Under the pieces are notes generated by a model that had not been told where the DNA came from, made no database searches, and saw only the letters and a program-made list of their open reading frames with translations. From Tannockella kyphosi (GTDB taxonomy: Bacteria > Bacillota_I > Bacilli_A > Erysipelotrichales > Coprobacillaceae), in contig NZ_CP088239.1 in assembly GCF_021054785.1 (NCBI RefSeq), positions 1,980,001 through 2,012,000 on the forward strand: a stretch of DNA of 32,000 nt, in the 5' to 3' direction. The position numbers and the translations under genes are program-made. Numbering within the stretch: the stretch's first letter is position 1; each line of letters starts with the position of its first letter. Of this stretch, positions 2,001-24,996 are shown one piece after another.

Positions 2001-2214
2001 CTAAATATTCTACAAAATCTCTTACTGTTTTAATTTCTACTGCTACTTCATCATCAATTTCAACATCAAATTCTTCTTCAATCGCCATAATTAATTCAAT
2101 AGCATCTAAAGAGTCTGCATTTAAATCTTCTCTTAGGTTTGTATCTAATGTAATTTCTACATCATCTTTTTTTAATACATCTACAATAATTTTCTTAACT
2201 TTATCTAATTCCAT
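1990..2214 (-). CDS. acpP: Acyl carrier protein (copy 1, last gene of the fab operon)
   Basis: 74 aa, acidic, with the phosphopantetheine attachment motif LNADSLDAIELIMAIEEEF. Confidence 0.95.
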   Translation of the reverse strand: MELDKVKKIIVDVLKKDDVEITLDTNLREDLNADSLDAIELIMAIEEEFDVEIDDEVAVEIKTVRDFVEYLEKK

Positions 2215-4699: not shown

Positions 4700-5622
4700 T
4701 CGTTATCTCCTTTTATTAGAGAAATAGTTTTCTCTAATGAGTCTTTATCTTCTACTTGATAACAAGTAATTTCTTTGTTTATCTTTTTAACAAAACCACT
4801 TAATACTTTCCCTGGTCCTATTTCAATAATTGTATCAATTCCATAATCTATCATTTTATAAATACTATCCTCAAAATAAACACTTGTCATTACTTGTTTT
4901 TCTAATAAGTTAGGGATTGATTGGTTCTCTTGTAAAAGAGTAGCCGTACTATTAAATATTACTGGTATTTTCATTGTTTGAAAGTGAACTGTTTCCAACT
5001 TTTCTTTTAATCTTTCACTAGCTTGTTGTAACAATGAGGTATGAAAAGGTCCACTTGTATTAAGAGCAATTACTCTTCTAGCACCTAATTCTTTACAATA
5101 ATTAGATGCTTCTTCGACTGCTTCTATTTGCCCACCTATCACAATTTGTCCAGGACAATTATAGTTAGCCACTTCCACTATTCCTGAAGAAACCTTTGTT
5201 ATTGCTTCTAATACTAGTTCTCTTTGTAACCCTATTACAGCAACCATTTTACTTTTCATTCCTGCTACTGCTTCTTCCATTACTTGTCCTCGATAGTTTA
5301 CTAAATCTAGTACTGTATCTTCATCAAATACCCCACTAGCATATAATGCAGAGTATTCTCCTAAACTTAAACCACATGTTATTATTGGTTCAATACCTGC
5401 TTGTTTTAGTAATTTTGTAGCAATAATAGCAGTTGTAACCATACAAGGTTGTGTATTGCTTGTTTTAGATAATTCTTCTATTGGACCATGAAAACATAAT
5501 TGTTTAATAGAAGGATTAATTCTATTTAATAATTGTTTTGCTTGTTCATAGTTATCATAAAATGATTGGTTCATTCCTACATATTGACTCCCTTGTCCTG
5601 CATATATAAATCCTATCTTCAT
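4681..5622 (-). CDS. fabD: Malonyl-CoA:ACP transacylase
   Basis: Contains FIYAGQGSQ and the GLSLGEYSA active-site serine motif. I placed the start at the ATG at 5622, which forms an ATGA overlap with the upstream stop. Confidence 0.93.
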   Translation of the reverse strand: MKIGFIYAGQGSQYVGMNQSFYDNYEQAKQLLNRINPSIKQLCFHGPIEELSKTSNTQPCMVTTAIIATKLLKQAGIEPIITCGLSLGEYSALYASGVFDEDTVLDLVNYRGQVMEEAVAGMKSKMVAVIGLQRELVLEAITKVSSGIVEVANYNCPGQIVIGGQIEAVEEASNYCKELGARRVIALNTSGPFHTSLLQQASERLKEKLETVHFQTMKIPVIFNSTATLLQENQSIPNLLEKQVMTSVYFEDSIYKMIDYGIDTIIEIGPGKVLSGFVKKINKEITCYQVEDKDSLEKTISLIKGDNEWNKEK

Positions 5623-6671
5623 GAATAACATTCCTCCATTAGTTGTTTTATTAATCTTTTTACTGAAATAATTTCTTTATTTAAATATCCATTACTTCCA
5701 CTAAAAAACAATCCTTCTTCTTTATTTCCTTTCACTGCATCTATCAATGCTCCAGATATACAATAAGGTGTTGTTTTAGGATCACATGGTATTAAACATT
5801 GGAAACAATGTTTAATCGGTATTCTTTGGCCTTTTTCTAACTTTTCAGTTAGTTTATTTTTAATTGCTCTTCCTGGCATACCTACTGGTGATTTAACTAA
5901 ATCAATGTCTTTGGTTGTTGCTTGTAAGAAAGCTTGTTTATAAGCTAAACTTGCATCACATTCATTTGTTGTTATAAAACGGGTTGCCATTTGTACGCCT
6001 GTTGCACCTAAGTCTATATATTTACGAATATCTTGACCCGTATATATTCCACCAGCTACAAAGACTGGTATGCATAAATCTAGTTGTTTTAGTAGTTCTA
6101 AAACATCTATTAAAATAGCTTCTAATGATTGTACTTTACCCTCTAATAAATCTTCTTTATGAAAACCTAAATGTCCTCCAGCAAGAGCTCCTTCAATAAC
6201 AATAAAATCAGGTACTCTTTGATGTTTTCTTTGCCATGATTTTAATATAACTGCTAATGCCTTTTTACTAGAAACAATAGGTGCAATTAATACATCATGT
6301 CCTTTTACTAAAGCTGGTAGATTAAGAGGTAATCCTGCTCCTGAAATAATAGCATCTACTTTTGCATCTAATGCTGCTTTTATCATTAATTCATAATCTC
6401 TAATAGCAACCATTGCATTAATAGCAACAATCCCATTGTTATTCGCTATTTCTTTTGCTTTTTTTATTTCTACTTGTAATTCTCTTACATTTGCTTCTTT
6501 TGTATTTTTTAAAAAGTCATCAGCTCGATAGCCTGGATGAGCCGTTGATATCACTCCCATCCCTCCATTCAATGCAACATGTCCTGCTAAATTCCCTAAA
6601 GATACCCCTACTCCCATTCCACCTTGAATAATAGGAATAGTCATTGTATGTTGATTTAATTGAATTTTCAT
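5619..6671 (-). CDS. Second nitronate-monooxygenase (NPD) family FMN protein, a FabK-like paralog with a C-terminal CX2CX3CX7C motif
   Basis: TIM-barrel NPD motifs are present (IIQGGMGVG, EGALAGGH, VAGGI, GATGVQMATRF), plus KHCFQCLIPCDPKTTPYC near the C-terminus. I trimmed the start to the ATG at 6671 (MKIQLNQ), directly after the fabK stop. Confidence 0.75.
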   Translation of the reverse strand: MKIQLNQHTMTIPIIQGGMGVGVSLGNLAGHVALNGGMGVISTAHPGYRADDFLKNTKEANVRELQVEIKKAKEIANNNGIVAINAMVAIRDYELMIKAALDAKVDAIISGAGLPLNLPALVKGHDVLIAPIVSSKKALAVILKSWQRKHQRVPDFIVIEGALAGGHLGFHKEDLLEGKVQSLEAILIDVLELLKQLDLCIPVFVAGGIYTGQDIRKYIDLGATGVQMATRFITTNECDASLAYKQAFLQATTKDIDLVKSPVGMPGRAIKNKLTEKLEKGQRIPIKHCFQCLIPCDPKTTPYCISGALIDAVKGNKEEGLFFSGSNGYLNKEIISVKRLIKQLMEECYS

Positions 6672-6672
6672 C

Positions 6673-7605
6673 TTATACCTCACTAGCCAATAGTTGATAA
6701 GTTTCTTTATATTCTTTAAATAATTGTTCAATAATTTCTTTAACTGGTTTACATTCTGTAATTAATCCAGCTACTTGTCCTGCCATTAAAGAACCATTTA
6801 TAATATCTCCTTCTACTACTGCTTTTTTTAGAGAACCTAATGTATATATTTCTAGTTCTTCTAAGGTTGCACCTTCTTTTTCTTTGCGTACATATTCTTT
6901 TGACATTTTGTTTTTTAAAATACGAACTGGTGTTCCACCAATTCTTCCAGTAACAATTGTATCACTGTCTTTTGCTTTTAAAATAGCTTGTTTATAGTTT
7001 TCATGGATAGGACATTCATCACTTGTTAGTAAACAAGTTCCTACTTGTACTCCACTTGCACCTAAGGCAAAAGCTGCTAACATTTGTTTTCCGGAAGCTA
7101 TTCCGCCAGCTGCAATAACTGGAATATCCACGGCATTTACTACTTGTGGTACTAATGCCATTGTTGTTAATTCACCAATATGTCCACCTGCTTCACAACC
7201 TTCTACAATAATTCCATCTACACCATTTCTTGCTACTCTTTTGGCTAGTGCTACTGTTGGAACTACTGGTAAAACAAGGATCCCTGCTTCTTTCCAAGCT
7301 TTGACATAAGGACCAGGATTCCCGGCACCGGTAGTAACAATAGGTACTTCCATATCAATAACTACTTGAGCCATCTCACTTGCAAAAGGATTTAATAACA
7401 TAATATTAACACCAAAAGGTTTATCTGTTAGCCTGCGACATTCTTGAATGTTTTCTTTTAACGTTGCTACGTCCATTCCTCCTGCCCCAATTAAACCTAA
7501 TCCTCCTGCATTACTAACGCTAGCTGCAAATGCTCCTGTTGCAATATTTGCCATTCCCCCTTGAATTAAGGGATACTTTATATGTAATAGTTCATTAATA
7601 TTCAT
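6673..7605 (-). CDS. fabK: Enoyl-ACP reductase II (FMN-dependent, FabK type)
   Basis: 310 aa. It matches the streptococcal FabK pattern as I recall it: YPLIQGGMA, KPFGVNIMLL, VTTGAGNP, EGCEAGGHIGELTTM, IPVIAAGGIA, GSLMAGQVAGL. Confidence 0.9.
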   Translation of the reverse strand: MNINELLHIKYPLIQGGMANIATGAFAASVSNAGGLGLIGAGGMDVATLKENIQECRRLTDKPFGVNIMLLNPFASEMAQVVIDMEVPIVTTGAGNPGPYVKAWKEAGILVLPVVPTVALAKRVARNGVDGIIVEGCEAGGHIGELTTMALVPQVVNAVDIPVIAAGGIASGKQMLAAFALGASGVQVGTCLLTSDECPIHENYKQAILKAKDSDTIVTGRIGGTPVRILKNKMSKEYVRKEKEGATLEELEIYTLGSLKKAVVEGDIINGSLMAGQVAGLITECKPVKEIIEQLFKEYKETYQLLASEV

Positions 7606-7614: not shown

Positions 7615-8535
7615 TTACCACTCATGTAGAGTTGCTCCCCATGTTAAACCTGCTCCAAAACCAATACACATTACTTTATCGCCTTTTTTTATAAGCTTTT
7701 GTTCATTCATTTGAGCTAATGCAATTGGTATACTGGCTCCTGATGTGTTACCAAATTCTTGTACGTTGATGTAAAACTTTTGGGGATCAATTTTCATTTT
7801 CTTATAAACATAATGGATAATTCGATAATTTGCTTGATGGCAAACAAAATGATCAATATCCTCTATCTTTAGATTTGATTTTTCTAATAACTTTTCTATG
7901 CATTTTGGAATGATTCTTGTTGCAAACTTAAATACTTCCGTCCCATTCATTGTTAAATAACCATCCTTTGATGTACATAATACCTCTTTATTTCCTTTTG
8001 CATCTAAATAACTATACATCTTATTATTAGATGCTTGGACTACTACTGCTCCTGATCCATCTCCAAATAAGATACAAGTACTACGATCTGTATAGTCTAT
8101 TAATTTAGAAAGAACTTCACTTCCTACAACCAATGCATATTTATCTTCTAACGAATTTAACAGTCCTCTTGCTATTTCTAACCCATATACAAATCCACTA
8201 CAAGCAACATTAATATCAAAAGCAATTACTTCTTGATCATTTAATCCTAATTTTTCTTGTAACATACAAGCAACACTAGGTGTCTTATTTTCATTAGACA
8301 TCGTAGCTACTAAGATAATACCAATCTTCTTTTTATCAATCCCTTGAATTGCTTGTTTGCTAGCAAGATAAGCAATATCGATATTGTTTTGAGTATCCAC
8401 AACATGTCTAGTATGAATACCTGTTCTTTCTTGAATCCATTCATCACTAGTATCCACTAGTTTTTCTAAATCTTTATTTGTTAGTTTTTTAGGTGGTACA
8501 TAGTACCCCGTAGAAAGTATCTCTATTCCCATCAT
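7615..8535 (-). CDS. fabH: Beta-ketoacyl-ACP synthase III
   Basis: 306 aa with the active-site Cys in NVACSGFVY, plus HQANYRI and GNTSGASIP. The start codon forms an ATGA overlap with the fabT stop. Confidence 0.93.
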   Translation of the reverse strand: MMGIEILSTGYYVPPKKLTNKDLEKLVDTSDEWIQERTGIHTRHVVDTQNNIDIAYLASKQAIQGIDKKKIGIILVATMSNENKTPSVACMLQEKLGLNDQEVIAFDINVACSGFVYGLEIARGLLNSLEDKYALVVGSEVLSKLIDYTDRSTCILFGDGSGAVVVQASNNKMYSYLDAKGNKEVLCTSKDGYLTMNGTEVFKFATRIIPKCIEKLLEKSNLKIEDIDHFVCHQANYRIIHYVYKKMKIDPQKFYINVQEFGNTSGASIPIALAQMNEQKLIKKGDKVMCIGFGAGLTWGATLHEW

Positions 8536-9005
8536 TTTAATTTATCCCTAATTTCTTCAAAGAAATAACATAACTTACGTAATGACTCAATCAAATGTTC
8601 ATCTTGCAATGAATCTGTATCCTCACAAATACTACCAATCATTTCATCATGAAAAGCTTGATGTACTCGACATGCATTGGCTCCTTTGCTTGTTACCATT
8701 ACTCGTATAATACGTTTATCATGTTTATCTTTGATTCTTTCTACACAATTTTTTTCTTCTAGTTTTTTAATAGCCGTTGTGACTGTTCCATTGGTTAGTG
8801 TCGCTTTTTTAGCGATAGAAGACATTGTTGGAGTAGGGATACTACTAATTAATCCTAATAAATGAACTTCTATTACACTAAGATCTTTTATGCCTCTATC
8901 TTTCATAAAGACTTGTTCAATATCTAATATTTCATTAAATAAGTGTACTAATAGTTCATTAATTACTTCTCGATTGATAATATCTCTATTTAACAATATC
9001 CTCAC
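8532..9005 (-). CDS. fabT: MarR-family transcriptional repressor of fatty-acid synthesis (FabT-like), copy 1
   Basis: About 155 aa with a winged HTH (PTMSSIAKKATLTNGTVTTAIKKLEEKNCVERIKD). It sits directly before fabH, as in streptococci and enterococci. The start is uncertain: GTG at 9005 lies directly against the AGGAGG, while TTG at 8996 has better spacing. Both overlap the end of accA. Confidence 0.8.
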   Translation of the reverse strand: MRILLNRDIINREVINELLVHLFNEILDIEQVFMKDRGIKDLSVIEVHLLGLISSIPTPTMSSIAKKATLTNGTVTTAIKKLEEKNCVERIKDKHDKRIIRVMVTSKGANACRVHQAFHDEMIGSICEDTDSLQDEHLIESLRKLCYFFEEIRDKLK

Positions 9006-9935: not shown

Positions 9936-10802
9936 TTATTTACCTACCTTATGCATTCTCAAGATTCGAATTAGTACATCTCTCATTTCATCTCTTGATA
10001 CAATCTTATCAATAAACCCTTGTTTTTTCATAAACTCACTACTTTGAAAATCTTCAGGTAATGTTTGTTTAATCGTTGTTTCTATTACCCTAGCTCCTGC
10101 AAAACCAATCAATGCTTTTGGTTCAGCTAAAATAATATCCCCTAACATCGCAAAAGAAGCAGTAACTCCTCCTGTTGTAGGATGCGTAATATACGATATA
10201 TATAATTGTCCTGCTTGATGATGACGTTGCAAGGCAGCTGATGTTTTTGCCATTTGCATCAAAGAAACAATGCCCTCTTGCATTCTTGCTCCTCCACTAG
10301 TACAAAAGATAATAATCGGTCTTTTTCTTTTGGTTGCATATTCAATCGCTCTTGTTATTTTTTCTCCCACAACACTTCCCATACTAGCCATAAAGAAGTT
10401 ACTATCCATAACACAAACTACACATCGTTGATTATCTATTTTTCCTAAAGCTACTACTACTGCTTCATCTAAGTTTGTTTTTTCTTGTTGAAGTTTTAAC
10501 TTATCCATATATCCTGGAAATAACAAAGGATCACTTGTTTCTAAGTTTTGGTAAGATACACGATATTTTTGATGATCAAAAACCATCTTTAGTCGGGTAT
10601 GAGCACTTATTTTTTGATGATACATACATTTAGGACAAATATAGTAATTACTAGTTACTGTTTCTGTTAAAATCATTTCTTTACAACTACTACATGTCGT
10701 ATATATTCCTTCTGGTACATCGATACTATTCTTTGTTTTTGCTTTTCTTCTTTGTTTAAATATTTTTAGTTTTTCTTTTCTTATATTAAATATATTTTCC
10801 AT
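9936..10802 (-). CDS. accD: Acetyl-CoA carboxylase carboxyltransferase beta subunit
   Basis: 288 aa with an N-terminal Zn ribbon (CSSC-x15-CPKC) and the SGGARMQEG motif. Confidence 0.93.
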   Translation of the reverse strand: MENIFNIRKEKLKIFKQRRKAKTKNSIDVPEGIYTTCSSCKEMILTETVTSNYYICPKCMYHQKISAHTRLKMVFDHQKYRVSYQNLETSDPLLFPGYMDKLKLQQEKTNLDEAVVVALGKIDNQRCVVCVMDSNFFMASMGSVVGEKITRAIEYATKRKRPIIIFCTSGGARMQEGIVSLMQMAKTSAALQRHHQAGQLYISYITHPTTGGVTASFAMLGDIILAEPKALIGFAGARVIETTIKQTLPEDFQSSEFMKKQGFIDKIVSRDEMRDVLIRILRMHKVGK

Positions 10803-12157
10803 TATTCATCCACCAAACTATCTAAATGAGCCTCTATAAATCCCGTATCAAAATTACCTTTGACATACTCATTATGATGTAAAATCATATATTGTAATTC
10901 TTGATTGGTATCAATTCCATCAATAACTAATTCAGATAATACTCGACGCATTCTTCTAATTGCCTCTAAACGATTGGTTCCATGAACAATCACTTTAGCA
11001 ACCATCGAATCATAGTGTGGCGATACAAGATATCCTTGATAGAGTGTCGTATCAATACGAACACCTAAACCACCTGGTAAATGTACTCCCTTTACTAGCC
11101 CCGGGCTAGGACGGAAGTTTTCACTAGGTTTTTCTGCATTAATACGACACTCAATTGCATGTCCTTGTAACATAACATTTGCTTGTTTCAACCCTAATCG
11201 TTGTCCTGCTGCAATTCGTATTTGTTCTCGGATTAAATCAACCCCTGTTACCATTTCTGTTACAGGATGTTCCACTTGAATTCTTGTATTCATTTCAATG
11301 AAATAATAATTCCCTTCACTATCTAAAACATACTCTATCGTTCCAGCATTGGTATAACCGGCACCTTTGGCAGCACGGACTGCATCATTCCCCATCTTTT
11401 CTCGCAAACTAGCTGTTAATGCTTTACTAGGAGACTCTTCAATCATTTTTTGATTTCTTCTTTGTATCGAACAATCTCTTTCTCCCAAATGAATTACATT
11501 CCCATAAGTATCTGCTAAAATTTGAAATTCTATATGCTTTGGATTTAAAATCAATTTTTCTAAATACATCGCATCATCATTGAAACAAGCTTTTGCTTCT
11601 GCTTTTGCAGTAGCAAAGGCTTGTTCAAATTCTTCTGGAGAGAATGCTTTTCGCATCCCTCTTCCTCCACCACCAGCAGAAGCTTTAATTAAAATAGGAT
11701 AACCTATTTTCATTGCGACATCTTTTGCTTCTTGCACATCCTTTACAATTCCTTGACTCCCTGGTACTACTGGTACCCCTGCCTCTATCATAATTTGACG
11801 AGCCATTGCTTTATTCCCCATCTTATCAATGACACTTCCTTTAGGACCTATAAACTTCATTCCACATTCTTCTACTAATCTTGCAAATTGCGCATTCTCC
11901 GATAAAAAGCCAAACCCTGGATGAATTGCATCACAATGTAAACTAGTAGCAGCTGCTAAGATATTTTGAATATTTAAATAACTCTCACTTGCTTTTGAAG
12001 AACCTATACATATGGCATGATCTGCAAGTTTCACATGCAAAGAAGATGCATCCACATCGGAATAAATCGCAACAGCCTCAATCCCTAACTCTTTACAAGT
12101 ACGAATAATACGAACCGCTATCTCTCCTCGATTTGCGATTAATATTCTTTTAAACAT
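10802..12157 (-). CDS. accC: Biotin carboxylase
   Basis: ATP-grasp motifs are present (ILIANRGEIAVRI, GGGGRGMR, EMNTRIQVEHPVTE). I placed the start at the ATG at 12157 (MFKRILIANRGE), which has a GAGG 7 nt upstream. The ORF-track start at 12163 has no RBS spacing. Confidence 0.93.
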   Translation of the reverse strand: MFKRILIANRGEIAVRIIRTCKELGIEAVAIYSDVDASSLHVKLADHAICIGSSKASESYLNIQNILAAATSLHCDAIHPGFGFLSENAQFARLVEECGMKFIGPKGSVIDKMGNKAMARQIMIEAGVPVVPGSQGIVKDVQEAKDVAMKIGYPILIKASAGGGGRGMRKAFSPEEFEQAFATAKAEAKACFNDDAMYLEKLILNPKHIEFQILADTYGNVIHLGERDCSIQRRNQKMIEESPSKALTASLREKMGNDAVRAAKGAGYTNAGTIEYVLDSEGNYYFIEMNTRIQVEHPVTEMVTGVDLIREQIRIAAGQRLGLKQANVMLQGHAIECRINAEKPSENFRPSPGLVKGVHLPGGLGVRIDTTLYQGYLVSPHYDSMVAKVIVHGTNRLEAIRRMRRVLSELVIDGIDTNQELQYMILHHNEYVKGNFDTGFIEAHLDSLVDE

Positions 12158-12578
12158 AATCATCCTCTAACAACATAATAGCTTGGTCGTATTCTACTAC
12201 CTCACTATCCTTTATCAATATCTTTGAAACAATACCATCTTGAGGAGCTTTTATTTCATTCATTACTTTCATCGCTTCAATAATACAAATAACTTGTCCT
12301 GCTTTAACACTTTGTCCCACTTCTACAAAAGCTTTTGCATCAGGTGAACTAGCACTATAGAATACCCCCACAATTGGAGACTTTACTTCTGTTCCTTTGA
12401 AAACATCTTCTACCACTTTCATTTCTTTTGTTTCTTGAATGACTGGTTGTTTTACTATTTCTTGAACTATCGTTGCTTTTTCTAGTTCTAATTTGATATC
12501 TTCTATTTCTATTTTCATTTTAGCTACAGATGAGCTTTCAAATTGTTCGAATAAATCTTTTACTAAGTCTAGTTTCAT
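12150..12578 (-). CDS. accB: Biotin carboxyl carrier protein
   Basis: 142 aa with the biotinyl-lysine motif IIEAMKVMNEI. Confidence 0.93.
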   Translation of the reverse strand: MKLDLVKDLFEQFESSSVAKMKIEIEDIKLELEKATIVQEIVKQPVIQETKEMKVVEDVFKGTEVKSPIVGVFYSASSPDAKAFVEVGQSVKAGQVICIIEAMKVMNEIKAPQDGIVSKILIKDSEVVEYDQAIMLLEDDYV

Positions 12579-12593: not shown

Positions 12594-12610
12594 CCTTTGA
12601 ATGTCAAAAT
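12594..12610 (-). promoter_or_regulatory. FabT-box-like palindrome TTTGA-atg-TCAAA, 17 nt upstream of the accB start
   Basis: The plus strand reads cCTTTGAATGTCAAAAT. It has the same 13-nt core (TTTGAATGTCAAA) as the bioY promoter palindrome. It fits the published streptococcal FabT palindrome as I recall it (ANTTTGATTATCAAATT). Confidence 0.55.
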
Positions 12611-12621
12611 AATTTTATGCG

Positions 12622-12651
12622 AAAAGAAAGACCCAGAGATCTGGGTTTCTT
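12622..12651 (-). terminator. Intrinsic terminator or attenuator between acp(2) and accB
   Basis: The minus strand reads aagaAACCCAGatctCTGGGTcTTTCTTTTcg. This is a GC-containing stem followed by a U-rich tail, directly after the acp stop codon. Confidence 0.65.
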
Positions 12652-12877
12652 ATTGTTTTGATGCTACATAATCAACAATATCTTTTACTGTTTTTAATGT
12701 AACAGCTGTTTCATCATCGATTTCAATCCCTAATTTTTCTTCTACTGCCATTACTAATTCTACTGCATCTAAAGAGTCAGCTTCTAAATCTTCTTTTAAA
12801 CTTGCATCTAATGTAACAAGTGTTTCATCCACACTTAATGAGTCTACAATAATTTCCTTAATTTCATCGAATAACAT
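12650..12877 (-). CDS. Acyl carrier protein (copy 2, own transcription unit upstream of accB)
   Basis: 75 aa with the motif [19 protein letters not shown]. By my hand alignment, 42 of 74 positions are identical to copy 1. Confidence 0.92.
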
Positions 12878-12904
12878 TTTCTATTCCTCCTTGATTTTGT
12901 GATG

Positions 12905-12951
12905 ATTATATACTATGTATTCTAAAATGTAAATAGTTTGATAATCAAAAT
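12905..12951 (-). promoter_or_regulatory. acp(2) promoter (TTTACA-17-TATAAT) with an adjacent FabT-box palindrome (12935-12951)
   Basis: The minus strand reads ATTTTGATTATCAAACtaTTTACAttttagaatacatagtaTATAATcatc. The palindrome TTTGAT-a-ATCAAA abuts the -35. Confidence 0.6.
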
Positions 12952-12963
12952 AATGTTTTTTTA

Positions 12964-13473
12964 TTAATACACCCTCTTTATTTTATGATAAAGAAAACAA
13001 GCTATCATTATTTTAATAGCGTCTCCAAACAAAAATGGATATACACATAAAGCCAAACTTGCTTGTAATGTTTGCTCTGTATAATACATAAACCACACTG
13101 TTCCAAAACTGTAACATAAAACAGTTCCTAAAAAATACGCTAACACGATATTTACTCTTTTATGTATTAGATAACTAATACTGGCTGCCATAAATGGAAA
13201 TATGATTAAATATCCCCCTGTCATACCAAACAATGATCCAAGACCACTACCAAAATTAGAAAAGACTGGAAGTCCAATCGCCCCTATTACTAAATAACCT
13301 GACAAACAAAAGAATGCTGGTTGAGGTTTTAAGATACCCCCGATAAGATAGATCGCTAATGTTTGTAATGTAATTGGTACAAATCCTGTTATATTAATTT
13401 TTAATTGTGCAAACACACAAATGATGGCTATAAACAATGCCGCCGTTGTCATATCTTTTACTTTTGTATTCAT
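12964..13473 (-). CDS. bioY: Biotin transporter S-component BioY
   Basis: 169 aa with about six TM segments. The BioY-like pattern is FVPITLQTLAIYLIGGILKP...GLPVFS...GGYLIIFP. It neighbours birA and the acc genes. No ecfAAT genes lie in the window. Confidence 0.88.
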   Translation of the reverse strand: MNTKVKDMTTAALFIAIICVFAQLKINITGFVPITLQTLAIYLIGGILKPQPAFFCLSGYLVIGAIGLPVFSNFGSGLGSLFGMTGGYLIIFPFMAASISYLIHKRVNIVLAYFLGTVLCYSFGTVWFMYYTEQTLQASLALCVYPFLFGDAIKIMIACFLYHKIKRVY

Positions 13474-13493
13474 ATTTTCCCTCCTGGTTGAAT

Positions 13494-13555
13494 ATTATAC
13501 TTATTTTGTTTTGAATGTCAAAACAAATTGCATAAATACTTTCCCATGTTATAAT
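13494..13555. promoter_or_regulatory. Divergent bioY / birA promoter region containing a perfect 10-3-10 palindrome (13505-13527)
   Basis: The bioY promoter on the minus strand is TTGACA (13516-13521), a 16-nt spacer, then TATAAT (13494-13499). The birA promoter on the plus strand is TTGCAT (13528-13533), a 16-nt spacer, then an extended -10 TGtTATAAT (13547-13555). The palindrome tttgttttga-atg-tcaaaacaaa covers the bioY -35 and abuts the birA -35. Confidence 0.6.
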
Positions 13556-13571: not shown

Positions 13572-14492
13572 ATGAAAAGAAAAGTAATTAGTTATTTATA
13601 TGACCATGTAAAAGAAAGTATTCCTAATCATTATTTAGAAAATAAATATCTTCTTTCCTCTCCTCAATTCGTTACTATTTTACAAGAACTAATTGATGAT
13701 GGTTTTTTAATAACGTACTCACTAGATACTTGTTGTTTGCACTCTTTGGTTACAACGCTTTGTAAAGAAGCTATTTGTAGTTATCTAGATTCTGATTATT
13801 CTATTGAAATATTTGATTCCATTGATTCTACAAACAGCTATGCAAAAAGAACACCATCTCCTTATAAAAGATTACTAATAACAAATCATCAAACATCAGG
13901 AAAAGGAAGGGGTAATCATTCCTTCTATTCTCCTAAGGATAGTGGTATCTATATGAGTTTGGTATATCCAAAATCATTTATTTATTTAGAACAATATCAA
14001 TATCCTATTCTAGCTTCTTGCGCCATTTATACGGCATTGCAAGAATTGTTTGATATCGAAGTGAAACTAAAATGGGTAAATGATATTTATTATGATAATG
14101 CAAAGGTTGGGGGAATTTTAGTAGAAGATGACGAAGAACAATTAATTATTGGAATTGGTTTAAATATTTTAAATGATATCAAAGATTTAAAAGAAAATAC
14201 TCGTCAAGATATTAGTAGTTTACAATTATATGGTTGTAGTAGAAATGAAATAATTGCTTGTATTATAAAGCAATTTGAATTACTTTGTAACCAATCTTGG
14301 CAGTCGATTCTTACGCTATATAAGCAACAATCTTGTTTACTTGATCGTGCTATTTATTTTCAAGTGAACCAACAAACTTTTTATGGAAAAGTAGTAGATA
14401 TTGATCATATGGGACGTTTAGTAGTAGAAGTAAATAATCAAAAACAGGTACTACAGAGTGGTGAAGTACATATTGGAAGCATAAAAAAATAA
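13572..14492 (+). CDS. birA: Biotin-[acetyl-CoA-carboxylase] ligase, with an N-terminal extension of about 80 aa that may be a divergent wHTH
   Basis: 306 aa with the motifs SGKGRGNHSFYSPKDSGIYMS and KWVNDIYYDNAKVGGILVE. Confidence 0.88.
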   Translation: MKRKVISYLYDHVKESIPNHYLENKYLLSSPQFVTILQELIDDGFLITYSLDTCCLHSLVTTLCKEAICSYLDSDYSIEIFDSIDSTNSYAKRTPSPYKRLLITNHQTSGKGRGNHSFYSPKDSGIYMSLVYPKSFIYLEQYQYPILASCAIYTALQELFDIEVKLKWVNDIYYDNAKVGGILVEDDEEQLIIGIGLNILNDIKDLKENTRQDISSLQLYGCSRNEIIACIIKQFELLCNQSWQSILTLYKQQSCLLDRAIYFQVNQQTFYGKVVDIDHMGRLVVEVNNQKQVLQSGEVHIGSIKK

Positions 14493-14514: not shown

Positions 14515-15537
14515 TTATCTAGTCATTTCACTAGTATCATTTGTATCTTGATGAGAAGCAATAATAGCTTCGATTTCATTTAATTCTAAAGCTTGCATAT
14601 CACCAGGAATTGTATTTTTTACAGCTCCTGTTGCATTCCCGAATTCTAATGCTTTTTGGCAATCTCCATCATATTTAATTAGTCCATAAAGAGCTCCAGA
14701 AATATAAGCATCTCCACTACCAATACGATCAACTACTTCAATATTAGCGTAATCATCTTCTTTGTAGTATGTATCTTTCAAAGCGTCATAGAATACAGAT
14801 CCAAAGGTATGTACTTTTGGACTATGTACGATTCTAGTAGTTGAGGCTACATAAGAGATAGGATATTCTTCTGTAAAGCTTTTCATAATTTGTTCTAAAG
14901 TACCTTCTTTTAAGAAAGTTAATTGTGCTGTACTTTCTGAACAGAAGAACATGTCTACATAAGGAAGAATTTCTTCAATGTATTGTTTTGCTTGTGGTCC
15001 TGTCCATAAGTTACTTCTAAAGTTAACATCAAAAGATATTTTAGCTCCAGCAGCTTTGAATTTTTTTATTAGTTCTTTTGTTAGGTCACGAACTTCTGGT
15101 GTTAGGGCTAATGTGATTCCTGTTGTATGGAACCATTTTGTAGAAGTGAACATTTCTTCTGGGAAATCTTCTAACTTCACTTTTAACATCGAAGAATGTT
15201 TACGATCATAGACAACTCTAGGTTTTCTAGGATATGCTCCATTTTCATAGTAATAAAGTCCTAATCTAGCATCTGATTCATTGTCATACGCTAAATATTC
15301 ATCACTTATTCCTACTCCACGCATTTTATTTCTTGAAAATATACCAATATCATTTCCTGGTACTTTAGAAATAATTCCTGTTTTTAAACCTAATAATGCT
15401 ATTCCACTTAGTACATTTAATTCTGCACCACCAACTTGTTTTTCTAAAAAATCACCACGAGTTAACTTTTCATTTGTAGGAGGAGAAAGTCTCATTAAGA
15501 CTTCTCCTAAAGATAATACATCATATTTCTTTTCCAT
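14515..15537 (-). CDS. kdgK: PfkB-family sugar kinase, 2-dehydro-3-deoxygluconokinase-like
   Basis: 340 aa with ribokinase-fold motifs (GGAELNV, DRIGSGDAYISG, GAVKNTIPGD). It is adjacent to eda. Confidence 0.8.
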   Translation of the reverse strand: MEKKYDVLSLGEVLMRLSPPTNEKLTRGDFLEKQVGGAELNVLSGIALLGLKTGIISKVPGNDIGIFSRNKMRGVGISDEYLAYDNESDARLGLYYYENGAYPRKPRVVYDRKHSSMLKVKLEDFPEEMFTSTKWFHTTGITLALTPEVRDLTKELIKKFKAAGAKISFDVNFRSNLWTGPQAKQYIEEILPYVDMFFCSESTAQLTFLKEGTLEQIMKSFTEEYPISYVASTTRIVHSPKVHTFGSVFYDALKDTYYKEDDYANIEVVDRIGSGDAYISGALYGLIKYDGDCQKALEFGNATGAVKNTIPGDMQALELNEIEAIIASHQDTNDTSEMTR

Positions 15538-15546
15538 GATATTCTC

Positions 15547-16506
15547 CTATTTTTGAATTAAATGAATTGCAAATCCTGCAACTTCATGTTTGAAATAAAT
15601 AGTAATTAGTTTGTCTCCATTATATAAAGCAGCATCCATATTAAACTCAAAACCTTGGTTTTCTAAATATGCTTTTGCACGATTTGCATCATTTGTAGCA
15701 ATCGCAATATGTCCTTTTGTTCCTAAATAAGGGCTTTTCATTGCTTCAATCGCACTACCTGCAAAATAAGAAGCTTTCTTTTCTGTTGCAGTAAATCCAA
15801 ACATTGCCTCAAACATTTTTACTGTTTGTTTTGCTTGATCATCATTTTCACAGTTAATCCCTACATGACGTAATTCAAAACCAAACATCGTCATTAAGGC
15901 TTCTTTTGTAAGTCTTGTGATTTCATCAAATTTACCAGCTTTTACTAAGTCTCCACTTACCATCCAGCTTCCACCACAACATAAGATTTTATTAAACGCT
16001 AAATATTCATTTACATTATTAGGATTGATTCCACCTGTCGGCATGAATTTCATATTTGTATAGGCTGCAGCCATTGATTTAATCATATTTAATCCTCCAG
16101 CAGCTTCTGCTGGGAAGAATTTTACAGTATCTAAACCTAATTCAATTGCTTGTTCTACTTGACTAGGACTAGTAACACCAGGTGTTACAGGGATTCCTTT
16201 TTCTACACAGTATTGAACCACTTTTGGGTTTAATCCTGGACTTACAATAAATTTTGCTCCTGCTGCCACTGCAATATCCACTTGTTCTACTGTTAAAATA
16301 GTACCTGCTCCAATTAACATGTCAGGATATTCTGTTGCCATAATACGAGTTGCTTCCACTGCTGCTTCTGTACGGAAAGTAATTTCTGCACAAGGTAACC
16401 CTCCATCGCATAATGCTTTTGCAAGAGGTGCTGCATCTTTTACATCATCTATTACGACTACTGGTACAATTCCGATTTGTTGTAATCTAGTTAACACTTC
16501 GTTCAT
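15547..16506 (-). CDS. eda: KDPG/KHG aldolase (Eda) fused to a C-terminal glyoxalase/VOC-like domain of about 105 aa
   Basis: Residues 1 to about 210 carry Eda motifs (CAEITFRT; the Schiff-base lysine context DTVKFFPAEAAGG; PTGGINP). Residues from about 212 to 319 (FELRHVGINCEND...GHIAIATNDANRAKAYLENQGFEF...FAIHLIQK) look like a single VOC module. Confidence 0.8.
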   Translation of the reverse strand: MNEVLTRLQQIGIVPVVVIDDVKDAAPLAKALCDGGLPCAEITFRTEAAVEATRIMATEYPDMLIGAGTILTVEQVDIAVAAGAKFIVSPGLNPKVVQYCVEKGIPVTPGVTSPSQVEQAIELGLDTVKFFPAEAAGGLNMIKSMAAAYTNMKFMPTGGINPNNVNEYLAFNKILCCGGSWMVSGDLVKAGKFDEITRLTKEALMTMFGFELRHVGINCENDDQAKQTVKMFEAMFGFTATEKKASYFAGSAIEAMKSPYLGTKGHIAIATNDANRAKAYLENQGFEFNMDAALYNGDKLITIYFKHEVAGFAIHLIQK

Positions 16507-16522
16507 TTGTCTTCTCCTTGAC

Positions 16523-16861
16523 CTATTTCTTTAAAAAGTCTTCTCTTTGTGGTGTGAAAATATCTAAAAGAACTGTGTCTTCTAAACATACACATCCATG
16601 TAATGATTCAATTGGCATAAATACAGAGTCTCCACCTTTAATAATTTGTTTCTCTCCATTTACTTCAAACTCTAAACATCCACTGATACAATAAGATACT
16701 TGTTCATGAATATGGTGATGTAAATCTCCAATAGCACCTTTTTGAAAATGTACTTCCACAATCATCATATCTCCACCACGAGCTACAATTTTTCTTTTAA
16801 TTAAGTCATTCACTTGTTCAAATTCAATTTCTTCATTAATAAAATAATAATCTCTGTTCAT
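16523..16861 (-). CDS. kdgF: Small single-domain cupin, KdgF-like (unsaturated uronate linearisation)
   Basis: 112 aa counted from the ATG at 16861, which has an AAGGAG RBS. Cupin motifs are GDLHHHIHEQVSYCISG and GDSVFMPIESLHG. The context is lyase, SDR, kdgK and eda. Confidence 0.65.
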   Translation of the reverse strand: MNRDYYFINEEIEFEQVNDLIKRKIVARGGDMMIVEVHFQKGAIGDLHHHIHEQVSYCISGCLEFEVNGEKQIIKGGDSVFMPIESLHGCVCLEDTVLLDIFTPQREDFLKK

Positions 16862-16871
16862 CTTATTCTCC

Positions 16872-18752
16872 TTATTTTTCAATTTCCCATACAGCATTAA
16901 ATGTAGCTGTTTTATTTTTTGTTCTTAAAATAATCGCTGTTCTAAATCTAGATACTGGATTATCATAAGTTTGTGCCATAAATACATCTTTATCTTTTGT
17001 ATCAATGATAGAAGTTAATGTTACTTTTCCTAATTTCCATTGTAATCTTAATTCATCACTACTTACTACTTTACGGACATCTTTTAAATGTTCATATCCA
17101 AATGCATCATATTCAATCTTTGCAGGAGTAGATGCTACTTCTGTTAATAATGTTGCTTCACTATGGAAAATCCAATCTAATTGATGTTCTTCTTTTGATT
17201 CTACTCCAAAACTATCTGTAAATCCATGATCACTAATTTCTACACGTCTTTGATAATCAACACCTTCATAAACATCTTCTACTAAAGAATGACAGATTGT
17301 ATCATTAAATTCAACAATTTTTCCACCTTCTGTAGAAACATGATTTTTCCCATCTACTAATACCGTATTATGAGATAATGAATGTCTATGCCATTCATTA
17401 CAAAGCTTTGATCCATAACCTGTATTTGATAAATCTCTTGATAATGATAATCCTTCTACCATTACTTCAATATTCATTTTATCAGGATGAGCATGAGAAG
17501 GTCCTCTATGACCATATTTCATAAAGACATTTATATGATCATTTTTAAGCATTCCAAAATATGAATTTTCAAAACAAGTAGAAGTTCTTTTGATTTCACT
17601 ACGATTGTTTATATCTAAATCTGGTAAACAAGACATACGTTCAAAACTAATTTCATTGTTATAATAGAAAGGTTTTGATAATGGGAACTCGACTCTTTCA
17701 CTTGGATTTGCACAAATATTTTTATAAATATTTCCTACTTCACTATCTTCTCCAAATACTTTAGTAGCTAAACAGTAAATATATTCATATGATTTTAATG
17801 TTACATTTGGCCATCCATCATTTGGATTTGGTAAGATATCGTTATCAAATGCATAATGATAAGCACGGATTAACATTTCTTCTACTAATCCTTTTGATGC
17901 GAATTCTTGTCCATGTAACTGAGCAAATGCCATTAAGTCTACTACACCTTCTAATAAGAAGAAGTTATAATGAATTGATCCTTCATACCAGAATTTATCT
18001 CCTGTAACACCTTGTTTTAATTGTTCATTAATACCAAATTCACCTTTGAATACTAAATCAATAAATGATTGATTTTGTGTATATAAACCAATAACACCTA
18101 CTGCTGCATTTAACCAACAAGGGATGTTATGAATATGTGTGATTTGAGGAATTAAGATATCAGTAATCGGAATAAATAAGTTTTTATTTAAACCTTCTAA
18201 GAATTCTTCTTCTAATTCACCTTTTAATAATTCTAAAGAAATAATAATACGAATAGCAACAATTGCTTCATTTAATCCTTGAGGCATTAAACGAGCTGCT
18301 CCACCAACATCAACTGTTAAACCACTTTCATCTACAATTTTATCTTTGGCATGTAATGCGAATTCTACATAATGATCAGAATAGAAACCTAAGATTTTTT
18401 TATATTCTGTTAAATATTTAGAATCTTTTTCAACACGATATAATGTCGCTAATTTCATTAATGTTAAAATTGCTGTATTACGGTAAAAATATCTCCATAC
18501 ATTATCAAATGTTTTATTTTGATATACTGTATGACATAATTGACAAACATGTTCATGTGGTTTATCTAAATCAAAGATCAGTCTTTCTCCATCTTCAGGA
18601 CAGAAATAATTATGTCCCCATTCACTTAAATATTCAGGTGAATCATGAAATTCATTACAAAACTTTTCTGCTTCTTTTTTCATTGATTCTAACATTTCCA
18701 TATATTTAGGATTCGTTGTTAGAATTTGTTCATTTATATCAAATATTTTCAT
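16872..18752 (-). CDS. Heparinase II/III-fold polysaccharide/oligo-uronate lyase A, cytoplasmic (no signal peptide)
   Basis: 626 aa. The C-terminal Hepar_II_III signature is GHRGPSHAHPDKMNIEV...HNTVLVDGKNH. The N-terminal half reads as helical, with WYEGSIHYNFF. There is an unusual FCPEDG...HEHVCQLCH cluster. The N-terminus MKIFDINEQIL is not hydrophobic. Confidence 0.7.
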   Translation of the reverse strand: MKIFDINEQILTTNPKYMEMLESMKKEAEKFCNEFHDSPEYLSEWGHNYFCPEDGERLIFDLDKPHEHVCQLCHTVYQNKTFDNVWRYFYRNTAILTLMKLATLYRVEKDSKYLTEYKKILGFYSDHYVEFALHAKDKIVDESGLTVDVGGAARLMPQGLNEAIVAIRIIISLELLKGELEEEFLEGLNKNLFIPITDILIPQITHIHNIPCWLNAAVGVIGLYTQNQSFIDLVFKGEFGINEQLKQGVTGDKFWYEGSIHYNFFLLEGVVDLMAFAQLHGQEFASKGLVEEMLIRAYHYAFDNDILPNPNDGWPNVTLKSYEYIYCLATKVFGEDSEVGNIYKNICANPSERVEFPLSKPFYYNNEISFERMSCLPDLDINNRSEIKRTSTCFENSYFGMLKNDHINVFMKYGHRGPSHAHPDKMNIEVMVEGLSLSRDLSNTGYGSKLCNEWHRHSLSHNTVLVDGKNHVSTEGGKIVEFNDTICHSLVEDVYEGVDYQRRVEISDHGFTDSFGVESKEEHQLDWIFHSEATLLTEVASTPAKIEYDAFGYEHLKDVRKVVSSDELRLQWKLGKVTLTSIIDTKDKDVFMAQTYDNPVSRFRTAIILRTKNKTATFNAVWEIEK

Positions 18753-18761
18753 TTATTGCTC

Positions 18762-20159
18762 CTATTCGAACACTACTTGTTCTTCTTTTATTTCTATACT
18801 TTTATTTTTCTCTATTCTACCATCAATGATTGTCTTTTTCATGAACAAATACAAACCAATTGAAAATAGTCCACTTAATATATTACTTACCAACATTGCA
18901 TACCAAATACCATATTCACCAATCCCCCAAATAGGTTGAGAGAAAATAATAACAACTGGTACTCTAAACACATAAATTCTCATTAAACTAACAAATAAAT
19001 TAAACTTTGTATCCCCTGTTCCTTGGAAAATACCCATTGCACATTCTGTCATTCCCCAGGGAATAATAGATGCACTATAGATACCCATTGCATTAATAAT
19101 ATGTTGATACGTTGGATCACTAGTATCCACAAATAATGCTGCAATCGATGATCTAAATGGCAGTAAGAATGCTATAAAAATAATAGCTAACGTTAATCCA
19201 AAACCTAAGGATTTCCATACTGCTTTTTTAACACGTTCTGGTTGGTTTGCACCCATGTTTTGAGCTACAATTACCGATAAACCTGTACCAAATGCGGTTA
19301 CAGCTTTAAAGAAAACAGAGTTTACTTTGTTTGTGATTCCATAAGCTGCTAAAACTGGTTCTCCAAAAGCAAGTACATACTTGTTAATAATTATAAAACC
19401 CATTGATATTAATGATTTTTCAAATATTAATGGTAATGCTGTTACTAATAATATTTTAGTTGAAATAGAGTTTATTTTGTATTCACTTATTTCTAATTTT
19501 CTTTCATTTTTCTTAGAGAAAAAACTAATTAAACAAGTAGTAGCACAAATTCCTTGTGCTAATATTGTTGCTAGTCCAATCCCTGTAATTTCCCAATTTA
19601 CTACAATCGTAAATAGGTAACAGAAAATGATTTTCATTATTAAAGAAAACATATTAATAGATATTGCTTTCTTTGTATTTCCTTGAGCTCTTTCAATTGC
19701 GAGATAAAGAACAGTAATAAAATTAAATACTACACCCCATGCTGTTAACATCAAATAACGACTTGAATCAGCTAATAAAGTATCTGTAATACCTGCTAAA
19801 AGTAATACTTCATTTGAAAAAACAAATGTTACGGCACTTATTATAAACCCAATCGTTACTCCAATGACAAATACATGGCCAATCATTCTACGTGCTTTTT
19901 GTTCATCATTAGCACCAATATAACGTGCTATTAAACTACACCCAGCTACCGATAGACCTGTTGCTACTGCATTTAATGTATCCTGAATAGGTCCTACAAA
20001 GGCAACACTTGCTACTGCTAAACTACCTACATTCGCAACAAAAAGACTATCTATAATACCATACATACCCTCTACCATATTGGTAATGATAATTGGTAAA
20101 GTTATCATCCAGATAACTGCGTCTAGTCTACCATTTAATATATTTACTTTCTCTTTCAA
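18762..20159 (-). CDS. MATE-family efflux transporter
   Basis: 465 aa with about 12 TM segments and a typical MATE N-terminus (ITLPIIITNMVEGMYGIIDSLFV). It starts at a TTG, preceded by AGGAGAGGGG. Confidence 0.85.
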   Translation of the reverse strand: MKEKVNILNGRLDAVIWMITLPIIITNMVEGMYGIIDSLFVANVGSLAVASVAFVGPIQDTLNAVATGLSVAGCSLIARYIGANDEQKARRMIGHVFVIGVTIGFIISAVTFVFSNEVLLLAGITDTLLADSSRYLMLTAWGVVFNFITVLYLAIERAQGNTKKAISINMFSLIMKIIFCYLFTIVVNWEITGIGLATILAQGICATTCLISFFSKKNERKLEISEYKINSISTKILLVTALPLIFEKSLISMGFIIINKYVLAFGEPVLAAYGITNKVNSVFFKAVTAFGTGLSVIVAQNMGANQPERVKKAVWKSLGFGLTLAIIFIAFLLPFRSSIAALFVDTSDPTYQHIINAMGIYSASIIPWGMTECAMGIFQGTGDTKFNLFVSLMRIYVFRVPVVIIFSQPIWGIGEYGIWYAMLVSNILSGLFSIGLYLFMKKTIIDGRIEKNKSIEIKEEQVVFE

Positions 20160-20209
20160 GATTTTCCCCTCTCCTAAACAATTTTTTATAAATCGCTCAC
20201 TTTAAATAG

Positions 20210-20246
20210 TATAGTAGGTAAGCGAGGAATTCATTTACCTACTATA
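20210..20246. promoter_or_regulatory. 12-bp perfect inverted repeat (tatagtaggtaa-N13-ttacctactata) in the SDR-MATE intergenic region
   Basis: Read directly from the sequence. It lies about 50 nt upstream of the MATE start and is not followed by a U-tract on either strand. Confidence 0.4.
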
Positions 20247-20272
20247 TGTGTAAAATTACTAATTCATTTATT

Positions 20273-20344
20273 AAAAAAACTGGAAATTTATTTTCTTTTC
20301 GTTTTCCTTGCGGAATTCACAAATGAAAACTTCCTTTCCAGTTT
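20273..20344 (-). terminator. Long irregular hairpin plus U7 downstream of the SDR gene (probable terminator or attenuator)
   Basis: On the minus strand, AAACTGGAAA...TTTCCAGTTT forms a 10-bp outer stem and GTTTTC/GAAAAC an inner stem, followed by TTTTTTT. Confidence 0.5.
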
Positions 20345-20356
20345 GTTTAAATCTTC

Positions 20357-21109
20357 TTATAAGAAGTCTTGTCCACCATTAACTTGGATAATTTCTCCTG
20401 TTAAGAAAGAAGCTTTTTCACTACATAAGAATGAAATTACTGATGCTACTTCTTCAGGTTGACCAAAACGTTTCATTAAGATATTGTTTTTCCAAGATTC
20501 AAATACTTGAGGATTTGTTTTCTTAATGTTGTCATGGAATGGAGTATCGATAGTTCCTGGGCTTACTGCGTTAGAACGGATACCGTATTCTGCTAAATCT
20601 TTTGCAAATGCTCTTGTTAAAGTAACGATTGCTGCTTTACTTACACCATAGATACCAGCTCCTGGACCACCTGCATTCCATGCAGCATTTGATGCAAAGT
20701 TAACGATTGAAGCATTTTCACTTTTCTTTAAGAAAGGAATTGCTGCTCTTGTTACGAAGAATGCGCTATCTACATTTAATGCCATTACATTACGGTAGAA
20801 ATCAGTAGTCATTTCTTCAAAACGAGAACGTCCTCCAAGTCCACCAGCGTTGTTTACAACAACGTCGATAACTCCGTATTTTTCACCAATTGCAGCTACA
20901 CTTGATGCTACTGCAGCTTCGTTTGTTACGTCAAAGTTAACGTACTCACATTCTGCTCCTACTTCTTTTAATGATGCAATTGCAGTTGCTGCTTGTGCGT
21001 CATCAATTCCGTTAATTACTACTGTATAACCATCTTTTGCTAATGCTGTTGCAGTTGCTAAACCAATACCACCTGTTGCTCCTGTAACTAATGCTACTTT
21101 TTTACTCAT
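20357..21109 (-). CDS. SDR-family oxidoreductase, DEH-reductase/KduD-like (4-deoxy-L-erythro-5-hexoseulose uronate to KDG)
   Basis: 250 aa with TGATGGIG, NNAGGLGGRSRFEEM, GGPGAGIYGVSKAA and SPGTIDTPFH. These motifs resemble what I recall of the Sphingomonas A1-R DEH reductase; I have not verified this. The gene is co-operonic with a lyase. Confidence 0.65.
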   Translation of the reverse strand: MSKKVALVTGATGGIGLATATALAKDGYTVVINGIDDAQAATAIASLKEVGAECEYVNFDVTNEAAVASSVAAIGEKYGVIDVVVNNAGGLGGRSRFEEMTTDFYRNVMALNVDSAFFVTRAAIPFLKKSENASIVNFASNAAWNAGGPGAGIYGVSKAAIVTLTRAFAKDLAEYGIRSNAVSPGTIDTPFHDNIKKTNPQVFESWKNNILMKRFGQPEEVASVISFLCSEKASFLTGEIIQVNGGQDFL

Positions 21110-21129
21110 TTTAATTTCTCCTTTTATTT

Positions 21130-23121: not shown

Positions 23122-23139
23122 TTATAATTCCTCGTTTTT

Positions 23140-24891: not shown

Positions 24892-24918
24892 GATATTTCC
24901 TCCCTATATTTTCTTATT

Positions 24919-24941: not shown

Positions 24942-24996
24942 TTGTTGTTGGTACAAAAAATAATTGCTGTTTGTCGTTGTATTGATAATACGCTAG

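Follow-up and report, generated by a model that had tools for sequence, protein, structure and literature searches.

What governs the import of biotin in a bacterium whose biotin transporter gene lies next to its fatty acid synthesis genes? The question is raised by a 32,000-nucleotide stretch of the Tannockella kyphosi genome (contig NZ_CP088239.1, positions 1,980,001 to 2,012,000; hereafter the window), in which three TTTGA-N3-TCAAA palindromes lie before bioY (S component of the biotin energy-coupling factor transporter), acp2 (acyl carrier protein, ACP), and accB (biotin carboxyl carrier protein, BCCP). An initial annotation, made from the sequence alone, proposed that these palindromes are FabT-type operators that link biotin uptake to fatty acid synthesis, and the match to the FabT consensus, a FabT orthologue in the gene cluster, conservation of position in Erysipelotrichales, and independent boxes at bioY in other genera all favor this proposal. 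We consider it likely that the three sites are operators of a FabT-family MarR repressor (the in-cluster FabT, its paralog, or both) that would couple biotin import to the acyl-ACP signal. We predict that, in this lineage specifically, the FabT regulon has come to include bioY and probably the biotin ligase gene birA; biotin uptake there is probably tied to fatty acid status rather than to BirA, the usual biotin sensor.

Three palindromes and their promoters

Each palindrome was read at the position that the initial annotation had given. The one in front of bioY (12964–13473, minus strand; Pfam BioY, 3e-37; PDB 4DVE), a proposed FabT target, is a perfect 10-3-10 palindrome, tttgttttga-atg-tcaaaacaaa (13505–13527), whose core, TTTGAATGTCAAA (13510–13522), falls in the spacer between bioY and the divergent birA and which is the only inverted repeat of that spacer. 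A promoter scan placed the bioY promoter, TTGACA-16-TATAAT, at 13494–13521 of the minus strand with 12 of 12 matches (−35 at 13521–13516, −10 at 13499–13494). For birA, a putative promoter with an extended −10, TTGCAT-16-(TGt)TATAAT, was read by eye at 13528–13555 of the plus strand (TTGCAT at 13528–13533, TGtTATAAT at 13547–13555); its −35 hexamer matches at 3 of 6 positions, which is why the scan did not list it. The palindrome does cover the bioY −35 and abut the birA −35, as had been claimed, since its core holds TTGACA and it ends 1 nt before TTGCAT. The related locus L002 keeps both the bioY promoter hexamers and the putative birA promoter (aaattgcataaat...atgttataat).

The box of acp2 (12650–12877, minus strand; Pfam PP-binding), likewise a proposed target, is agTTTGATAATCAAAat at 12935–12951 (core TTTGATAATCAAA, 12937–12949) and lies 3 nt upstream of the −35 hexamer of the acp2 promoter, TTTACA-17-TATAAT (12905–12933, minus strand), which the scan found with 11 of 12 matches. 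The box of accB (12150–12578, minus strand; identified by Pfam), the first gene of accBCDA-fabT-fabH-fabK-fabK-fabD-fabG-fabF-fabZ-acp1, is ccTTTGAATGTCAAAat at 12594–12610 (core TTTGAATGTCAAA, 12596–12608). It occupies the interval between a terminator-like hairpin after acp2 (12629–12648, minus strand; from the promoter/terminator scan) and the accB ribosome-binding site, with 17 nt separating the core from the ATG at 12578. Similar hairpins are found in L002 and in a second related locus, L167. A promoter role for the accB box through its internal TTGACA was considered and rejected: a −10 element at 16–17 nt spacing would place the transcription start inside the open reading frame (ORF).

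The exact palindrome, TTTGANNNTCAAA, is present in four copies in the 32 kb of the window, where 0.24 would be expected, and none of 100 shuffled sequences gave four. Once a single mismatch is permitted, the number of TTTGA-N3-TCAAA sites in the window no longer exceeds chance, so only exact sites carry weight. To score the flanks, we built a position weight matrix (PWM) from related loci, with 36 related sites used for the information at each position. The resulting consensus is TA(C/G)TTTGA-N3-TCAAA(G/C)TA, in which the three central bases carry near-zero information. Within the window, only the three intergenic sites reach a score of 10 or more; the acp2 site scores highest (24.7), followed by the accB site (21.7) and the bioY site (18.2). 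At the acp2 and accB sites, the position two bases outside the core has the consensus A. The fourth exact copy, TTTGATGATCAAA (10568–10580), lies within the coding region of accD; with poor flanks, a PWM score below 10, and recurrence limited to the near-identical locus L001, it was set aside as an operator and is probably a chance occurrence.

Boxes in related genomes

A search with AccC through one genome of each species yielded 80 loci (1.31 Mb), which were annotated by tblastn. The nearest loci, with 70–82% AccC identity, are from Erysipelotrichales/Coprobacillaceae (Thomasclavelia, Catenibacterium, Beduini, and metagenome-assembled genomes [MAGs]). The 80 loci hold 43 exact boxes where base composition predicts 3.6, a 12-fold excess, and 40 of the 43 are within 130 nt upstream of acp, accB, fabT, fabH, fabD, or fabK. 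Nineteen boxes in 18 loci precede accB, mostly 9–26 nt from its start codon, and 15 precede acp at 43–101 nt from the start, with a mode of 63; the arrangement TCAAActaTTTACA, in which the −35 follows the box directly, recurs before acp in more than 10 related loci. Boxes also go together with FabT genes: 13 of the 14 loci that contain a FabT-like gene carry a box, and 53 of the 80 loci have neither, being mostly Clostridia without such a gene nearby. L167 and L170, lineages reached through FabT homologues, again have boxes at acp and accB, and positional orthologues of the accB box are present in L001 and L002 as well.

The initial annotation had named conservation in relatives as a check, and L002 provides it. 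Although the spacer DNA around them has diverged, and BirA and BioY are only 44% and 71% identical, all three palindromes are kept at the same positions in L002: TTTGATTATCAAA at accB, TTTGAATATCAAA at acp, and ttattttga-atg-tcaaaataa at bioY. Given the enrichment, the fixed positions, and the association with FabT genes in relatives, the acp2 and accB sites are, on comparative grounds, ordinary and well-conserved FabT-type operators of this order, located as such operators should be in the promoter and 5′ regions of genes for the type II pathway that makes fatty acids (FASII).

These results also bear on whether the palindromes might be chance symmetry in AT-rich DNA combined with promoter hexamers, with no dedicated regulator involved. 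In favor of this, the genome is rich in A and T, TTGACA occurs in two of the three cores, and the exact copy inside accD has no obvious role. The shuffled sequences, the 12-fold enrichment at fixed positions before acp and accB, the link to FabT genes, and the unsuitable spacing of the accB site for a promoter all argue against such an origin, which we regard as scarcely credible.

At bioY, the palindrome is kept in both L001 and L002, and its arms have changed symmetrically between the window and L002, from G/C to A/T. A metagenome scan with a BioY alignment found seven contigs (L088, L091, L092, L094, L095, L103, and L109) in which bioY carries an exact box at its 5′ end and fab genes are absent within 4 kb. 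Exact protein lookup assigned them to two diverged lineages, Faecalibacillus intestinalis and F. faecis. In these contigs the box lies downstream of a TTGACA-17-TAATAT promoter and overlaps the bioY start codon, TTG (T|TTG AAC TTC AAA, encoding M N F K; L095, 1699–1711), such that the operator and the first four codons are the same DNA; this overlap may account for the unusual choice of start codon. The F. faecis palindrome is longer, TTACTTTGAACTTCAAAGTAA, and scores highest among the sites found here.

Thomasclavelia saccharogumia has a one-mismatch box at the same place in bioY. In Catenibacterium, where bioY comes first in the order bioY-acp-accBCDA-fab...-fabZ-birA-(FabT-like), a TTTGA-N9-TCAAA palindrome lies over the bioY promoter, together with a one-mismatch box at −33. 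The former, TTTGATTTT-T-AAAATCAAA in L013–L015 (for example, at about 8665–8683 of L015), has half-sites 9 nt apart instead of 3 and is found 4 nt upstream of the bioY −10. Two overlapping imperfect boxes or a different spacing class could account for it. In L018, bioY and birA follow accA within the operon.

FabT and BirA as candidate binders

Which protein would bind these sites? A MarR-family gene lies between accA and fabH, within the FASII cluster (8532–9005, minus strand; Pfam MarR). The best PDB match of its product is Streptococcus pneumoniae FabT (6JBX, E=1.5e-23), with the next MarR at 1e-8, which identifies it as the in-cluster FabT orthologue. A second FabT paralog, a possible alternative or additional binder, is encoded at 28366–28833 (minus strand); it is 62% identical to the first and matches 6JBX at E=4e-23. 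For both proteins, the match to 6JBX is better than those to other MarRs by about 13–15 orders of magnitude. Their recognition-helix stretch, AKKATLTNGTVTTAIKKLEEK, is identical, and the motif T(N/L)GT(V/I)TT is common to the window FabT, pneumococcal FabT, and the FabTs of related loci. The resemblance to the streptococcal FabT operator that the annotation had pointed out is borne out: published FabT boxes are 5′-ANTTTGATTATCAAATT (PMC11452403) and ANTTTGACTGTNAAATT (PMC8406281), and the three sites have the same core, an exact TTTGA-N3-TCAAA, as the published ANTTTGA-N3-TCAAATT.

The presence of two paralogs raises the possibility that the sites are divided between them, with the in-cluster FabT acting at acp2 and accB and the paralog acting at the longer 10-3-10 palindrome of bioY and birA, as a separate small regulon that possibly responds to another ligand, such as the second ACP. 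The window does hold two FabT paralogs and two ACPs, only the bioY site has perfect 10-nt arms, and those arms have changed in concert relative to L002. A second FabT-like MarR also adjoins birA or bioY in L009, L014, L015, and L170. However, the identity of the recognition-helix stretch means that differing DNA specificities are not expected, the symmetric change in L002 merely restores the A/T of the family consensus, and the Faecalibacillus bioY boxes have ordinary FabT flanks. The present data speak for neither paralog over the other. We regard a division of the sites as unlikely and retain the view that FabT, as either or both proteins, would act at all three. The paralog gene itself lies downstream of a xanthine/uracil permease gene, and the PWM scan found no FabT box near it.

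The initial annotation offered another alternative, in which the winged helix of BirA binds the accB and bioY palindromes in response to biotin and only the acp2 site belongs to FabT. Several observations speak for it. The birA gene (13572–14492, plus strand; a possible FabT target) encodes a protein whose N-terminal extension had been suggested to be a divergent winged helix-turn-helix (wHTH), and for the fold this was right: an AlphaFold model from a 40-sequence alignment is confident (predicted local distance difference test [pLDDT] 94; 94–97 in the wHTH), residues 1–56 are predicted to form a winged helix (H-H-H-beta-beta), and the best PDB matches are the full-length class II BirAs of Staphylococcus aureus and Escherichia coli. 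As modeled, BirA therefore has the class II architecture, an N-terminal wHTH fused to a ligase core. The bioY palindrome is in the divergent birA-bioY region, the classical place for a BirA operator, and in this genome accB and bioY share the same core sequence.

The residues that would read the DNA tell against this alternative. Repressor BirAs have the recognition-helix signature (V/I)SR.A(V/I)(W/N)K; the alignment places LSSPQFVT at this position in the window BirA and ISLEILLS in that of L002 (P0002), neither with basic residues. This helix thus differs between the two genomes, which share an identical bioY core. A Pfam search of the window BirA gave no significant HTH_11 match, with E of about 0.1 at best. 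An exact database lookup gave no match to the window BirA. Only two other database proteins, 98% and 44% identical to the window BirA, share its N-terminal extension, and both are encoded on contigs with the same birA/bioY-acp-accB synteny. In relatives with boxes at acp and accB, BirA is 222–232 amino acids long and is usually encoded by the last gene of the fab operon; since it has no DNA-binding domain there, it cannot bind the boxes, and the window accB box is the positional orthologue of boxes in just such genomes. Residues 1–60 of the window BirA (13572–13750) keep the folded class II winged helix with the SR..WK signature gone, and the sister lineages have class I BirAs; the window protein appears to represent a stage midway through losing its role as a repressor.

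Operators for BirA are missing as well. The canonical operator comprises two half-sites, TGTNAACC and GGTTNACA, 13–16 nt apart, as verified by gel shift for bioY of Streptococcus suis, Lactococcus lactis, and Enterococcus faecalis (PMC4877710). Searching for these half-sites at a separation of about 13–16 nt (a span of about 30–40 bp) with up to two mismatches, we found no canonical BirA operator anywhere in the window; the same search detected BirA boxes before bioY in L023, L083–L086, and L173, which served as positive controls. The bioY genes of L. lactis-like, S. agalactiae, S. pasteurianus/gallolyticus-group, S. mutans-like, and another streptococcal locus have BirA boxes. A FabT box at bioY was also looked for in organisms with characterized FabT and was not found in the L. 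lactis-like and streptococcal loci examined, a set without S. pneumoniae. In L023 (an Oscillospiraceae MAG), where bioY has no FabT box either, a textbook BirA operator, TGTCAACC-N14-GGTGAACA (1872–1901), separates a class II birA-bioY operon from a divergent acp-accB cluster, so that acp and acc genes adjoin a BirA site there. One inverted repeat in the window, TATTGTT-N16-AACAATA (12651–12680), loosely recalls the spacing of BirA half-sites; with arms of only 7 nt and a position inside the 3′ end of the acp2 coding sequence, it was judged to be a chance occurrence.

The identity of the accB and bioY cores, which the annotation had stressed, stands for this genome only. In L002 the core is TTTGATTATCAAA at accB and TTTGAATGTCAAA at bioY, and the spacer bases are uninformative, which rules out the shared core as the mark of a separate regulator. 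From these comparisons, BirA is unlikely to be the binder of the palindromes, and the version in which it takes both accB and bioY, with FabT left only the acp2 site, is very improbable; the analysis does not support it.

Pfam confirmed the gene identities on which these arguments depend (BioY, ACP, AccB with its biotinyl domain, biotin ligase, AccC/D/A, MarR, and FabH). On the minus strand the order is bioY, acp2, accB, accC, accD, accA, the MarR gene, fabH, two fabK-like genes, fabD, fabG, fabF, fabZ, and acp1. Two ACP genes bracket the fab cluster, acp1 (1990–2214, minus strand) at its tail and acp2 (12650–12877, minus strand), with its own promoter and terminator, at its head. The pair recalls the AcpA/AcpB pairs that are linked to FabT co-repression in enterococci and streptococci. 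The tandem NMO/FabK-like enoyl-ACP reductase genes (5619–7605, minus strand; 310 and 370 amino acids) are an arrangement kept in most related loci. Beyond birA, a neighboring block (14515–28176) appears to be a uronate/glycosaminoglycan utilization island, with genes for a PfkB kinase, a 2-keto-3-deoxy-6-phosphogluconate (KDPG) aldolase, a cupin, a heparinase II/III-like protein, DUF4962, two SSF symporters, a short-chain dehydrogenase/reductase (SDR), and an IclR regulator.

A predicted link between fatty acid status and biotin uptake

If FabT binds all three palindromes, how would it act? For binding, the sign of regulation, and the ligand, we extrapolate from the established biology of FabT in Lactobacillales (PMC13046290, PMC11452403). 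By analogy with streptococcal and enterococcal FabT, a FabT dimer bound to long-chain acyl-ACP would bind TTTGA-N3-TCAAA and lower transcription. At bioY, because the operator contains the −35 hexamer, FabT would cover this hexamer, exclude RNA polymerase, and block initiation. The same complex would adjoin the −35 of birA, which is transcribed divergently, and may reduce its expression too. At acp2, FabT would be centered near −45, with the box 3 nt upstream of the −35, and would overlap the upstream edge of this hexamer. At accB, where the box follows the acp2 terminator and precedes the ribosome-binding site, FabT might form a roadblock to read-through from the acp2 promoter or repress a weak internal start that its operator covers. 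The same acyl-ACP signal that sets acetyl-CoA carboxylase (ACC) and FASII would then also set biotin import and perhaps biotin ligase, and this control would replace the usual control of bioY by BirA and biotinyl-AMP in this lineage.

Several points weigh against this interpretation. Not every lineage shows the link: in the L170 lineage, bioY is directly upstream of acp, and there are boxes at acp and accB and none at the bioY promoter; in L009, no box was found upstream of a marR-bioY pair. The bioY site of the window has G/C instead of the consensus A/T two bases outside the core, where L002 has A/T. Since the accB and bioY cores contain TTGACA, part of their conservation could reflect promoter function, although this is an insufficient account because TTGACA explains neither the left half-site nor the position at accB. 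No convincing promoter could be assigned at the accB site, which leaves the proposed mechanism there less certain. The one-mismatch sites of Catenibacterium and T. saccharogumia are weaker evidence than exact boxes. The same box could not be shown at the fab genes of Faecalibacillus in the same genome, as the FabT search gave no Faecalibacillus match; two loci taken at first for Faecalibacillus fab clusters, L019 and L020, turned out to be from Beduini. Finally, the FabT operators of this organism are predicted from sequence comparison. Taken with these points, the comparative support for FabT-type control of all three genes is good.

FabT boxes before FASII genes are textbook knowledge for streptococci, enterococci, and lactococci. 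In Lactobacillales, FabT is the master switch that shuts down fatty acid synthesis when host lipids are available, and it has been studied for its role in determining virulence and resistance to FASII inhibitors. With the FabT of Streptococcus, Enterococcus, and Lactococcus, a MarR-family protein with acyl-ACP as co-repressor, the T. kyphosi system shares the core palindrome and an orthologue that is encoded inside the fab cluster and abuts fabH. Its operators are before an ACP gene and internal to the cluster, comparable to the streptococcal promoter that FabT regulates between acpA and fabK (PMC13046290). Unlike the Lactobacillales systems, it belongs to Erysipelotrichales/Coprobacillaceae, its genes are ordered acp-accBCDA-fabT-fabH... 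with fabT in mid-operon instead of first, and it has two paralogs. Most important, it has an operator on the bioY promoter, beside birA. The S. pyogenes FabT regulon comprises the FASII locus plus fakB4 only (PMC11452403).

The initial annotation knew of no described link between FabT and biotin. This holds in that the literature we searched contains no FabT operator at bioY, and no paper on FabT in Erysipelotrichales; it does not hold for co-variation of bioY with FASII genes, which is reported for S. pneumoniae and S. mitis (PMC8406281, PMC5958418, PMC7678824, PMC10269507). In S. pneumoniae, bioY is up in a fabT deletion, with a tabulated value of 2.25 (PMC8406281), and it goes down together with FASII under exogenous fatty acids; across the pneumococcal and S. 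mitis studies, it is down with arachidonic acid (PMC5958418), with cadmium (PMC7678824), and with serum. Since pneumococcal bioY follows FASII, coupling of biotin uptake to this pathway is physiologically sensible. The mechanism in those species is stated to be unknown (PMC10269507). By analogy with the classical BirA model, the streptococcal coupling may be indirect, with extra apo-AccB draining biotinyl-AMP and releasing BirA. In T. kyphosi and its relatives, direct coupling would result from the predicted cis-element, in a setting where BirA does not act, or no longer acts, as a repressor, and this would be new.

How does such control compare with other ways of regulating biotin uptake? The class II BirA control of bioY in Firmicutes has the same target and the same birA-bioY neighborhood, and the three-domain class II fold has been kept in T. 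kyphosi. The window, unlike that system, lacks the operator architecture and encodes a BirA with a degenerate recognition helix, and close relatives have class I BirAs; the signal would be acyl-ACP instead of biotinyl-AMP and apo-BCCP. In some bacteria with a BirA devoid of a DNA-binding domain, biotin genes have dedicated regulators of their own, namely BioR (GntR family) in alpha-proteobacteria and BioQ (TetR family) in Actinobacteria. As in those cases, some other factor would control biotin uptake in an organism whose BirA does not act as a repressor; unlike in those cases, there is no dedicated biotin regulator, and bioY has apparently been recruited into the regulon of a consumer pathway, FASII and ACC. 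A broader possibility, to which we give slightly less than an even chance, is that FabT took over the control of biotin acquisition from BirA in part of Erysipelotrichales. In that case acyl-ACP, and not biotin, would control bioY and any birA that is divergent or belongs to the fab operon, BirA would have decayed or lost its DNA-binding domain, the genome studied here would be an intermediate between class II and class I, and FabT would be a third solution besides BioR and BioQ.

If these predictions are correct, FabT and its operator grammar would reach abundant gut Erysipelotrichales, including Faecalibacillus, Thomasclavelia, Catenibacterium, Beduini, and their relatives, and would directly include the biotin importer. 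A cofactor transporter would be wired to the pathway that consumes the cofactor instead of to the cofactor itself, a rewiring of regulons from cofactor sensing by BirA to product sensing through acyl-ACP. Such a mechanism could be compared with the unexplained co-variation of bioY and FASII genes in pneumococcus. The window BirA, with its repressor fold retained and its recognition residues gone, would offer material for examining what the N-terminal domain contributes to ligase activity after DNA binding has been lost. For these gut bacteria, the prediction is that exogenous fatty acids would lower both the demand for biotin and its uptake.

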